A DNA stretch of 64,000 nucleotides from an uncultured Eubacteriales bacterium (GTDB taxonomy: Bacteria; Bacillota; Clostridia; Lachnospirales; Anaerotignaceae): the NCBI GenBank assembly GCA_934256695.1, contig CAKQPE010000001.1:3502-67501 (forward strand). The letters run 5' to 3'. Below the pieces are notes generated by a model, which made no database searches, was not told the origin of the DNA, and saw nothing but the letters and a program-made list of their open reading frames with translations. Below, piece after piece: positions 7,341 through 7,580 of the stretch (within the stretch, counting starts at the first letter, position 1; each line of letters opens with the position of its first letter). Both the position numbers and the translations under genes were made by a program.

Positions 7341-7580
7341 CTGTAAAGATAAAAACCTTGAGACTCCGTCTCAAACTCTGCAAGCCTTTGAAAAGGCTTG
7401 ACCTAAACTTTTGTCAGATACCATGATTACAATCATGGTATCTGTGAGCCTGAAATTATTAATTAATCGCAATTATTTTTCCGAAAAACGCAATGTAATT
7501 GCGTTTTGATAAAAGTTTTGATGCAACTTTTTCAAAAGTTGCTCAGGGTTTGGGGTGAAACCCCAAGGTTTTAATCCGTA
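7341..7580. repeat. Mosaic hairpin element, short form, copy R3
   Basis: Left end: hp1 TTGAGACTCCGTCTCAA 7358..7374, hp2 7381..7400, ACCTAAACTTTT, then hairpin CAGATACCATGATTACAATCATGGTATCTG. Right end: AAAACGCAATGTAATTGCGTTTT, GATAAAAGTTTT, hp2 GCAACTTTTTCAAAAGTTGC 7523..7542, hp1 TTGGGGTGAAACCCCAA 7549..7566. Confidence 0.85.

Follow-up and report, generated by a model that had tools for sequence, protein, structure and literature searches.

Why do the two ends of a small intergenic repeat share a layout of hairpins but not the sequences of the hairpin stems? The question is raised by a 221-bp non-coding element at positions 7352-7572 of a 64-kb stretch of an uncultured Eubacteriales genome (contig CAKQPE010000001.1), here called the window. 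The element lies between the jag terminator and the trmE promoter, with jag itself at 7647-8264 on the - strand. It belongs to a modular, palindrome-rich, non-coding intergenic repeat family for which we use the name hairpin chain. Our literature searches returned no description of such a family, which is apparently undescribed. Foldability is conserved in the hairpin chain and stem sequence is not, and the family behaves as mobile, recombining DNA. The reading we favour, with a probability of about one half, is a mosaic mobile repeat of the REPIN/BIME kind, whose propagation would need foldable hairpins with fixed loops and joints, probably in single-stranded DNA (ssDNA).

Architecture of the hairpin chain

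The repeated unit is a module of about 75-110 nt. In the orientation used here for all modules, from the outer tip to the third hairpin, it consists of an A-rich tip (AAGACC), a first hairpin (hp1), a tail, a second hairpin (hp2), a joint of the form A...AAACTTTT and a third hairpin (hp3). hp1 has a GC-rich stem of 6-7 bp and a 3-nt pyrimidine loop. hp2 has the general form N6-TTTGAAAA-N6', and AAACTTTT always lies 10 nt after TTTGAAAA; together with AAGACC, these are the conserved motifs of the family. Two inverted modules around a variable core make up elements of about 220-600 bp, and single modules and solo hp1 palindromes are also present. The focal element has the following parts, in window coordinates.

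7352-7572, no strand: focal element, 221 bp, non-coding
7352-7357, + strand: left outer tip AAAACC (family consensus AAGACC), placed by module alignment
7358-7374, + strand: left hp1, TTGAGAC-TCC-GTCTCAA, terminator-like if read outward on the - strand
7375-7380, + strand: left tail ACTCTG, whose CTC core repeats the core of the 3' arm
7381-7400, + strand: left hp2, CAAGCCTTTGAAAAGGCTTG, that is CAAGCC-TTTGAAAA-GGCTTG
7401-7415, + strand: left joint, ACCT-AAACTTTT-GTC
7416-7443, + strand: left hp3, AGATACCATGAT-TACA-ATCATGGTATCT
7444-7484, no strand: variable core separating the two modules
7485-7507, - strand: right hp3, AAAACGCAAT-GTA-ATTGCGTTTT, or AAAACGCAAT-TAC-ATTGCGTTTT as read on the - strand, the commonest hp3 type
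7508-7522, - strand: joint of the right module, AAAAGTTT on the + strand, ATCA-AAACTTTT in module orientation
7523-7542, - strand: right hp2, GCAACTTTTTCAAAAGTTGC, in module orientation GCAACT-TTTGAAAA-AGTTGC
7543-7572, - strand: right tail ACCCTGA, hp1 and outer tip AAAACC, in module orientation; hp1 occupies 7550-7566 and reads TTGGGGT-GAA-ACCCCAA, or TTGGGGT-TTC-ACCCCAA in module orientation

The two ends are inverted copies of one layout whose stems differ between left and right. This is what an earlier examination of the letters alone (the sequence-only reading) had described, and the sequences it quoted are in place. Folded as ssDNA, the element is predicted to form a multi-branched structure of -53.4 kcal/mol (z = -10.0 against shuffles). 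Outside the AAGACC tip, several ends elsewhere in the window share an AT-rich palindrome and motif (GATAAATATAAATTTATC / RRACTGA; 39047-39068, 39651-39680, 58386-58410 and 58620-58645), so the inverted repeat of some elements is longer than the module as modelled.

Stems covary and loops do not

That the arms covary across constant linkers had been claimed from the window by the sequence-only reading, on 19 hp2 units, 22 hp1 units, at least 11 hp2 stems and 5 hp1 stems. These counts hold, save that a direct scan gives 23 hp1 units of the family. A profile search returns about 22 ends in the window; a covariance model built from 19 of these recovers 19 complete modules, beside which there are four hp1-only fragments. 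The hp2 arm variants number 11 (CCACCC, CAAGCC, CAATTT, GCAACT, CGATTT, TGAACT, CCGGCT, AAATTT, TGAGCC, CAAACC and TTCGCT) and the hp1 stem types 5-6. Seven hp2 units that had been given as examples are all palindromic save for the two central bases, six of them as 20-mers and the one at 39606-39623 as an 18-mer. A stem-blind pattern, which specifies the hp2 loop and the joint but no stem bases, matches the window 17 times, against 0.00 expected from shuffles.

The statistics were extended to the species with 35 syntenic loci of other strains, obtained by exact-protein look-ups; with the window these make 716 kb and yield 181 module hits, 94 distinct sequences and 74 parsed modules. (L-numbers below denote sequence loci from other strains, other genomes or viral contigs.) Among 40 distinct modules, standard pairs fill 99.2% of pair cells compared with 78.7% after shuffling, and 136 cells are changed on both sides, a number reached by 0 of 500 shuffles. 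Sliding the partner column by 1-3 positions lowers pairing to 29-54%. Double changes occur at all six variable hp2 pairs, and the one-sided (wobble) state at none. In the 74 parsed modules the variable hp2 pairs comprise 442 Watson-Crick, no G.T and two mismatched pairs in 13 perfect arm variants; for hp1 the figures are 492, three and five, in about eight stem types. The species therefore holds many more than the two or three variants that the sequence-only reading had taken as the mark of simple spread by copying. Between distinct combinations the hp2 arms are 52% identical, the hp2 centre 97% and AAACTTTT 97%.

Loops behave differently from stems. In module orientation the hp2 centre reads TTTGAAAA in 146 cases and TTTTCAAA in none, and hp1 loops are pyrimidine-rich in every case. 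The loops of hp1 and hp2 are therefore under directional constraint, and those of hp3 are without it.

These patterns bear on whether the family is an ordinary miniature inverted-repeat transposable element (MITE), in which a DDE-type transposase binds duplex terminal inverted repeats, the hairpins are incidental and a few old subfamilies have been copied. Inverted ends, small size, the lack of coding capacity, intergenic placement and TA or AT dinucleotides at several junctions are all as expected of a MITE, and the pool of stem variants is indeed finite, shared and spread by copying or recombination. However, the varying positions lie exactly within stems and always in pairs, there are at least 13 hp2 variants, and the terminal repeats share layout, tips and joints alone, their stems differing even between the two ends of one element. 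We consider a DDE-type MITE very unlikely, also because no consistent target-site duplication was seen and neither the inverted pairs checked nor plasmid and phage collections yielded a parent insertion sequence.

A function in RNA under host selection, as terminators, insulators, mRNA-stabilising stem-loops or small RNA, would also preserve folding over sequence. Read outward from either end, hp1 resembles a terminator hairpin followed by GGTTTT. At the focal element hp1 alone has the intrinsic-terminator layout, outward at both ends, and hp2 has no T run after it. Solo hp1 units resemble bidirectional terminators, CGCAAT-type hp3 hairpins are flanked by A and T runs, and modules fold stably as RNA (z -2.3 to -3.9). 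For 19 of 27 modules from other genomes, the neighbouring gene on the 3' side of the module is encoded on the opposite strand. Against this stand the complete absence of G.U among the 442 variable hp2 cells and the inverted symmetry of the elements, which privileges no strand. Copies are also gained, lost, inverted and replaced between strains regardless of the neighbouring genes, unpaired changes accumulate in resident copies, and Rfam 15 yields nothing at gathering score, all further matches with E-values up to 10 being noise. RNA-level function is thus unlikely; where the sequence-only reading had allowed for selection on either folded RNA or ssDNA, the missing wobble pairs and equivalent strands disfavour RNA.

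The tail after hp1 repeats the core of the 3' arm (CCC, CTC, CCCC or CC), and the 5' arm of hp1 can therefore pair with either copy. The longest substring shared by 3' arm and tail is 3.08 in direct register, compared with 2.69, and 3.82 in mirror register, compared with 2.99, values that 0 of 2000 shuffles reach, on a handful of independent stem types and related copies. The tracking of arm by tail noted in the sequence-only reading is real but thinly supported. One allele carries C to T in both arm and tail in direct-repeat register (GTTTCAA / ATTCTG), and in the TTGGGGC type the tail permits an alternative hairpin equal in length to hp1. The mirror repeat of 3' arm and tail could also point to a purine-pyrimidine-pyrimidine (R-Y-Y) triple helix. 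The GTTTCAA / ATTCTG allele fits a direct repeat, that is, alternative Watson-Crick pairing, and L057 fits the mirror repeat better.

Resident copies decay in place

Clustering at ≥92% identity gave 29 module clusters, which represent alleles of one copy or very recent copies. Within them the stems of hp1 and hp2 show eight one-sided changes and no two-sided change, and the adjacent hp3 adds two further one-sided changes. In the pair CCACCC/GGGTGG, for example, the 3' arm becomes GTGTGG in L003 and L008 and the 5' arm becomes CAACCC in L010; as in the first case, mismatched alleles are shared by two strains. Because all eight changes are uncompensated, resident copies decay in the ordinary way and their arms are not quickly corrected. 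Perfect pairing despite differing sequence is seen only when old module lineages are compared with one another. The argument that ordinary decay would not keep arms complementary therefore stands between old lineages and fails in place, and much of the stem variety at any one locus is ready-made block swapping (see below) rather than new paired mutation. At the level of the family, the sequence-only reading was right that something beyond simple decay is at work.

The loops of hp3 do invert in place. ATCCGCATGAT-AAAA-ATCATGCGGAT in L003, L005 and L006 corresponds to the same arms around -TTTT- in L007, L008 and L010 (near 18255-18331), and AAGCCTATGAC-GCA-GTCATAGGCTT in L171 to -TGC- in L172 (near 11100-11200), with identical stems and flanks in both cases. 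Only these two flips are counted, each verified in the same orientation; a naive flip scan is confounded by locus orientation. They are the footprint left by intrastrand template switching, a mechanism described as creating and maintaining hairpins (PMC5453318, PMC8794818).

Could this mutational process explain the family without any selection on folding? Template switching (quasi-palindrome correction) would then make arms and keep them perfect, and the palindromes would drift neutrally. The reverse-complemented hp3 loops between close strains are a classic trace of it, pairing is Watson-Crick only with no G.T intermediates, and a whole-element inversion bounded by palindromes is found (see below). 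Yet the eight of eight one-sided hp1 and hp2 changes, some present in several strains, indicate that correction there is slow or absent. The 146 to 0 orientation of the hp2 centre needs selection, not symmetric mutation, and the identity of loops and joints across distant genomes is left unexplained. We regard mutational maintenance as an unlikely account of the whole; intrastrand templated events, which the sequence-only reading had suggested in the form of arm correction, do occur as loop flips at hp3 but are not the full story.

Turnover and block exchange between strains

Three spacers that hold an element in some strains have only a solo hp1 palindrome, complete with both outer tips, in others. 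Between gidB and gntR, L009 has AAAGACCTTGGGGCAAAGCCCCAAGGTCTTT where the window has the full element 3003-3242. Between the hydrolase gene and argS, L161 has AAAGACCGTGGGACTCTGTCCCACGGTCTTT, the window counterpart being the element 19434-19701. Between argS and parA (21553-21929), seven of 11 sequences (10 strain loci and the window) have a solo hp1, and the remaining four (the window and three strain loci) hold three different insertions. In L002 the entire 258-bp composite between gidB and gntR is inverted relative to its flanks, with the breakpoints hidden in the terminal hp1 copies.

Exchange also affects single blocks. The spacer between jag and trmE has three alleles, one of which is a different element in opposite orientation, and in another of which merely the terminal hp2 and hp1 are replaced. 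Six alleles exist at the spacer beside the thiamine pyrophosphate (TPP) riboswitch (58405-58625), and some of them differ by a swap of the hp1 block only (TTGGGGC, GTGGGAC, GTGGAC), with hp2 CAAGCC retained. L171 and L172 have the hairpin pair of a second, ~231-nt repeat family in place of the hp2 block. Types of hp1 and hp2 are freely combined. No whole element is more than 82% identical to any sampled paralogue, whereas stretches of 60-110 nt match blocks at other loci with 95-100% identity; the elements are thus mosaics whose pieces meet at the conserved joints. At their borders we find TA, AT, AAC or nothing, and empty alleles keep the solo hp1 rather than a clean site.

Alternatively, hp1 with its tips (AAGACC-stem-loop-stem-GGTCTT) could form a near-palindromic crossover site for a site-specific or homology-driven process, by which cassettes would be inserted, deleted and inverted at solo hairpins provided that stem identity between partner sites supplies the address. 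In all three empty alleles a solo hp1 sits exactly where other strains have a full element, and its stem type recurs in the outermost hp1 of the filled alleles. Inversion breakpoints fall inside hp1, and several different cassettes occupy one solo site. But many elements have different hp1 stems at their two ends (7358 and 7550 in the focal element), and the loops of solos differ from those of filled alleles. Solos could equally be slippage deletion products between palindromic arms, hp2 and hp3 are left unaddressed, and no recombinase was found among Pfam-annotated genes in ~180 kb of the species or among 142 ORFs beside the first 25 of 36 other-genome loci. We consider such recombination sites quite improbable.

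Larger cargo is also seen at element sites. A four-gene YknX/MacB-type efflux operon (51083-55753) lies between the elements 50359-51083 and 55835-56350. It is missing from seven of 10 other strains, where a single half element joins the flanking genes; the operon accordingly sits inside or between repeat elements. In the gidB-gntR spacer, an element site in other strains, L006 carries an inserted restriction-modification set (15207-17066; N6_N4 methyltransferase and MjaI-type endonuclease). A ~62-nt insert (CTTGGTCAGGAAATTTGCTTCGCAAA...CTTTGCGGTTCCC) lies exactly at the hp2 centre in several alleles with at least two hp2 arm types (window 21660-21760, L159 5186, L175 8951, L179 8732, L002 18249-18383), as if the hp2 loop were its target.

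Distribution in other genomes

A stem-blind pattern scan of one genome per species gave at least 82 loci. In about 36 of the 82 listed, all hp2 pairs are perfect (6/6) and a GC-rich hp1 immediately precedes hp2, and the remaining listed loci are chance matches in coding sequence with 0-3 pairs. Carriers among the listed matches are Eubacteriales, Oscillospiraceae, Ruminococcus, Lachnospiraceae, Defluviitaleaceae and related metagenome-assembled genomes (MAGs). Many of these copies are single units of ~170-190 nt with two more hairpins upstream of hp1, and others are compact inverted pairs (L034). The 68 model hits from other genomes add further stem types; pairing holds in 96.2% of their cells, and 229 cells carry changes in both partners. 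Some hp2 blocks, among them CAAGCC and AAATTT with an AGTA joint, are common to other genomes and the window species, and loops and joints stay identical across distant genomes. Two different Clostridia MAGs (L040 and L059) have the same two flanking genes, one of them encoding triosephosphate isomerase, with a single module between them in opposite orientations.

Plasmid and phage collections contained no match, and the viral contig search returned one small related family only. Its members (L111, L119, L123, L132 and L135) share a module-like unit consisting of a GTTCTTC hairpin, CTTACT-TTTGAAAA-AGCAAG and ACCAAAACTTTT. An A.C mismatch (G.T on the opposite strand) is conserved in this unit, which precedes an ATG by ~20 nt. 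Clustering found no recurrent neighbouring protein family at the other-genome loci.

Several other identities were considered and rejected. Inverted pairs 1.5-3 kb apart, candidates for an autonomous copy, enclose housekeeping genes, with no transposase between the pairs checked. A promoter reading (TTGACC at the hp2 3' arm; TTGAAA-18-TATCAA) fails in that the -10 positions are not conserved. Resemblances to IHF sites, DnaA boxes and hix sites were dismissed by eye. hp1 is no duplicated target: its two copies have reverse-complement loops.

Copies and neighbouring features in the window

The window covers the chromosomal origin region (dnaA, dnaN, recF, rpmH, rnpA, yidC, jag, trmE, gidA, gidB, noc/soj/spo0J and serS). 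It also carries bofA, a yaaL-type (DUF2508) gene and spoIIIJ-jag, and its gene content is that of a low-GC Firmicute rather than of a spirochaete such as Treponema denticola, which GC content and origin-region layout might have suggested. All 19 modules in the 64 kb are intergenic or overlap merely the last codons of a gene. The copies besides the focal element are as follows, with hp1 / hp2 stems in brackets.

376-452, - strand: module (TTGAGA(T/C) / CCACCC), one end of a ~560-bp element running past the window start
2979-3008, + strand: hp1-only unit of tip, TTGGGG hairpin and tail ACCCTTA, abutting the next element
3003-3242, no strand: element with modules 3003-3079 (+; GTGGGAC / CAAGCC) and 3165-3242 (-; TTGGGG / CAATTT)
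19434-19701, no strand: element with modules 19434-19510 (+; GTGGGAC / CGATTT) and 19604-19677 (-; GTGGAC / TGAACT) and an hp1-only unit at 19672-19701 (-)
21553-21929, no strand: element with module 21553-21630 (+; TTGGGG / CCGGCT) and an hp1-only right end at 21896-21929 (-)
26959-27036, - strand: module (TTGGGG(G/C) / CAATTT)
30370-30447, + strand: module (GTGGGGT / CAATTT) overlapping the 3' end and stop codon of the open reading frame (ORF) 29708-30430
30517-30558, - strand: degenerate hp1-only end, TTGGCGC-ATT-GCCCCAA
31491-31568, + strand: module (TTGGGG / AAATTT) of a longer element, missing from strains L156, L160 and L162
39063-39656, no strand: ~590-bp element with modules 39063-39140 (+; TTGTGGC / CGATTT) and 39583-39656 (-; GTGGAC / TGAGCC)
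47730-47806, - strand: module (TTGAGAC / CAAACC)
50359-51083, no strand: modules 50359-50435 (+; TTGAGAC / CAATTT) and 51007-51083 (-; GTGGGAC / TTCGCT), on one side of the strain-variable efflux operon
55835-55912, + strand: module (TTGGGG / AAATTT), on the far side of the efflux operon
58405-58625, no strand: element with modules 58405-58482 (+; TTGGGGC / CAAGCC) and 58548-58625 (-; TTGGGG / AAATTT), with six strain alleles

Two of these copies reach into genes. The peptidase S51 gene (ORF 29708-30430) takes its stop and the ~18 codons before it from the module at 30370-30447, and the stop codon of ilvD (ORF 453-2117; window 446-455) lies at an element junction and is TGA or TAA depending on the strain's element. 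Cobalamin (44949-45134), glycine (38405-38501) and TPP (58237-58335) riboswitches, all on the - strand, score above the Rfam gathering threshold, and the glycine and TPP leaders each have an element immediately upstream. The element or solo hairpin that precedes parA-parB is flanked on either side by a perfect copy of TGTTTCACGTGAAACA (21491-21506 and 21929-21944; 0 expected by chance), which we take to be the canonical parS palindrome.

The second repeat family (~231 nt, 95-99% identical) occurs at 50444-50674, 60595-60825 (inverted) and 62097-62307. Its hairpins are AAGTCGAAATC-CTG-ATTTCGACTT and GGTGTCGAC-TTT-GTCGACACC, and the spacers that contain it vary in length among strains (346 against 210 nt, 484 against 236 nt). 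A histidine-rich repeat with an 18-nt period (63560-63780) lies inside the - strand ORF 63052-63996. Orthologues of this ORF match Ni_insertion (LarC-like), and the protein ranges from 297 to 314 aa across strains.

Proposed mode of propagation

We propose that a putative propagator reads the units as folded single strands, most likely of DNA. It would depend on each hairpin and on the sequences of loops and joints, whereas the sequence of the stems would be free. Module lineages would therefore drift in their stems only through paired changes. Such drift may have built the standing pool of about 13 hp2 and about eight hp1 stem variants in the species, which would then be reshuffled between copies as blocks at the conserved joints. 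The filter of propagation would decide which module lineages persist, so that selection would act on lineages and not on resident copies. The perfection of the arms probably owes something to intrastrand template switching at the palindromes, but this process is too slow to stop the one-sided decay of resident copies. Candidate propagators are a RAYT or IS200-like HUH transposase, a recombinase that acts on hp1, and the host's own replication and recombination. DNA rather than RNA is the most likely substrate, judging from the lack of wobble pairs and the both-strand symmetry of the elements.

Several points weigh against this proposal. No transposase, recombinase or RAYT is present among the Pfam-annotated genes in ~180 kb of unique sequence of this species. 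For the other genomes, Pfam annotation of 142 ORFs (first 25 of 36 loci, a second batch of 77 ORFs being left out) likewise shows housekeeping functions but no transposase. Because no such partner was found, we can only infer mobilisation by a dedicated enzyme. The junctions inspected have no consistent target-site duplication. In the wider, weaker set of hits from other genomes G.U pairs amount to about 2-3%, and the grounds for preferring ssDNA over RNA are indirect. Since the module copies are related, they are less independent than the shuffle statistics take them to be. The strain sequences are metagenome assemblies, in which chimeric assembly of co-occurring strains could inflate block swapping; most allele types recur in independent samples.

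A further idea, which we hold to be improbable, is that the stems serve as address codes. An element end and a solo would then recombine only if their stems match, through folded-strand pairing or short homology. If so, no conventional transposase would be needed: the family would use a programmable reaction guided by structure to spread and to invert and exchange its cassettes, and the tail copy of the 3' arm would give an alternative pairing that opens hp1 for strand exchange.

Should the mosaic mobile repeat be the correct reading, the alleles would amount to a natural mutagenesis table of what the putative single-strand-reading enzyme needs. The elements are highly polymorphic within the species and are therefore practical strain markers. 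Their position beside promoters, terminators, a riboswitch leader and the 3' ends of genes also makes them a source of changes in regulation. The in-place loop flips beside uncompensated stem mutations make the family a natural system for weighing template switching against selection in the upkeep of hairpins.

Comparison with known systems

Integron attC sites conserve structure over sequence and are recombined as a folded single strand; they stand in arrays beside the integrase and carry R''/R' cores of the form RYYYAAC / GTTRRRY in an R''/L''-L'/R' layout. The hairpin chain likewise conserves structure and not sequence, but its copies are dispersed rather than arrayed. IS200/IS605 ends and those of their non-autonomous derivatives, the PATEs, have subterminal hairpins that are recognised in ssDNA, and they make no target-site duplication. 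Unlike the ends of the hairpin chain, which are inverted copies of one layout, theirs are non-inverted left and right ends on one strand, and they insert at a fixed tetranucleotide. These ends are also discussed in PMC3116915.

Bacterial MITEs such as Correia/NEMIS, ERIC and bcr1 of B. cereus are small and intergenic, with inverted ends, a stable predicted structure and possible side-effects as terminators or promoters (PMC2229807). The hairpin chain is similarly small, non-coding and intergenic, with inverted ends and a stable fold, whereas the terminal repeats of those families are conserved in sequence and their target is usually duplicated. To our knowledge, independently varying modular hairpins and solo-hairpin alleles are not features of Correia/NEMIS, ERIC or bcr1. 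With template-switch mutations the family shares in-place loop inversion and perfect Watson-Crick arms without wobble intermediates. Template switching is, however, a mutational process and not an element family, and it leaves unexplained why hp1 and hp2 loops keep one orientation and why the joints are conserved.

BIMEs combine palindromic units with conserved linker motifs into mosaics. REPINs and REP-BIMEs are mobilised by RAYT transposases (Bertels and Rainey 2011, PMC3116915). REPINs are extragenic high-copy palindromes whose inverted doublet is the replicative unit and folds in ssDNA or RNA; compensatory hairpin changes are reported to be common, and singlets occur beside doublets (PMC3116915). 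The hairpin chain is like them in being extragenic, in its many copies (19 modules in 64 kb) and in an inverted doublet that folds (z = -10). It differs in that no RAYT was found (~180 kb of the species; 142 ORFs from the first 25 of 36 other-genome loci), in lacking a GTAG-type 5' motif and in its unconserved stems (52% identity). While the hairpin chain behaves like REPINs and BIMEs, we do not treat it as a member, because the defining sequence features are lacking and no RAYT was found in the sequence covered. Each of its units strings together at least three separate hairpins, whose loops and joints are fixed and whose stems vary freely; its elements are longer (220-600 bp), its hosts are of Firmicutes type, and single hairpin blocks are exchanged. 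If the favoured reading is right, it would be a REP/REPIN-like system outside Proteobacteria with a richer architecture of several independent hairpins, fixed loops and free stems.

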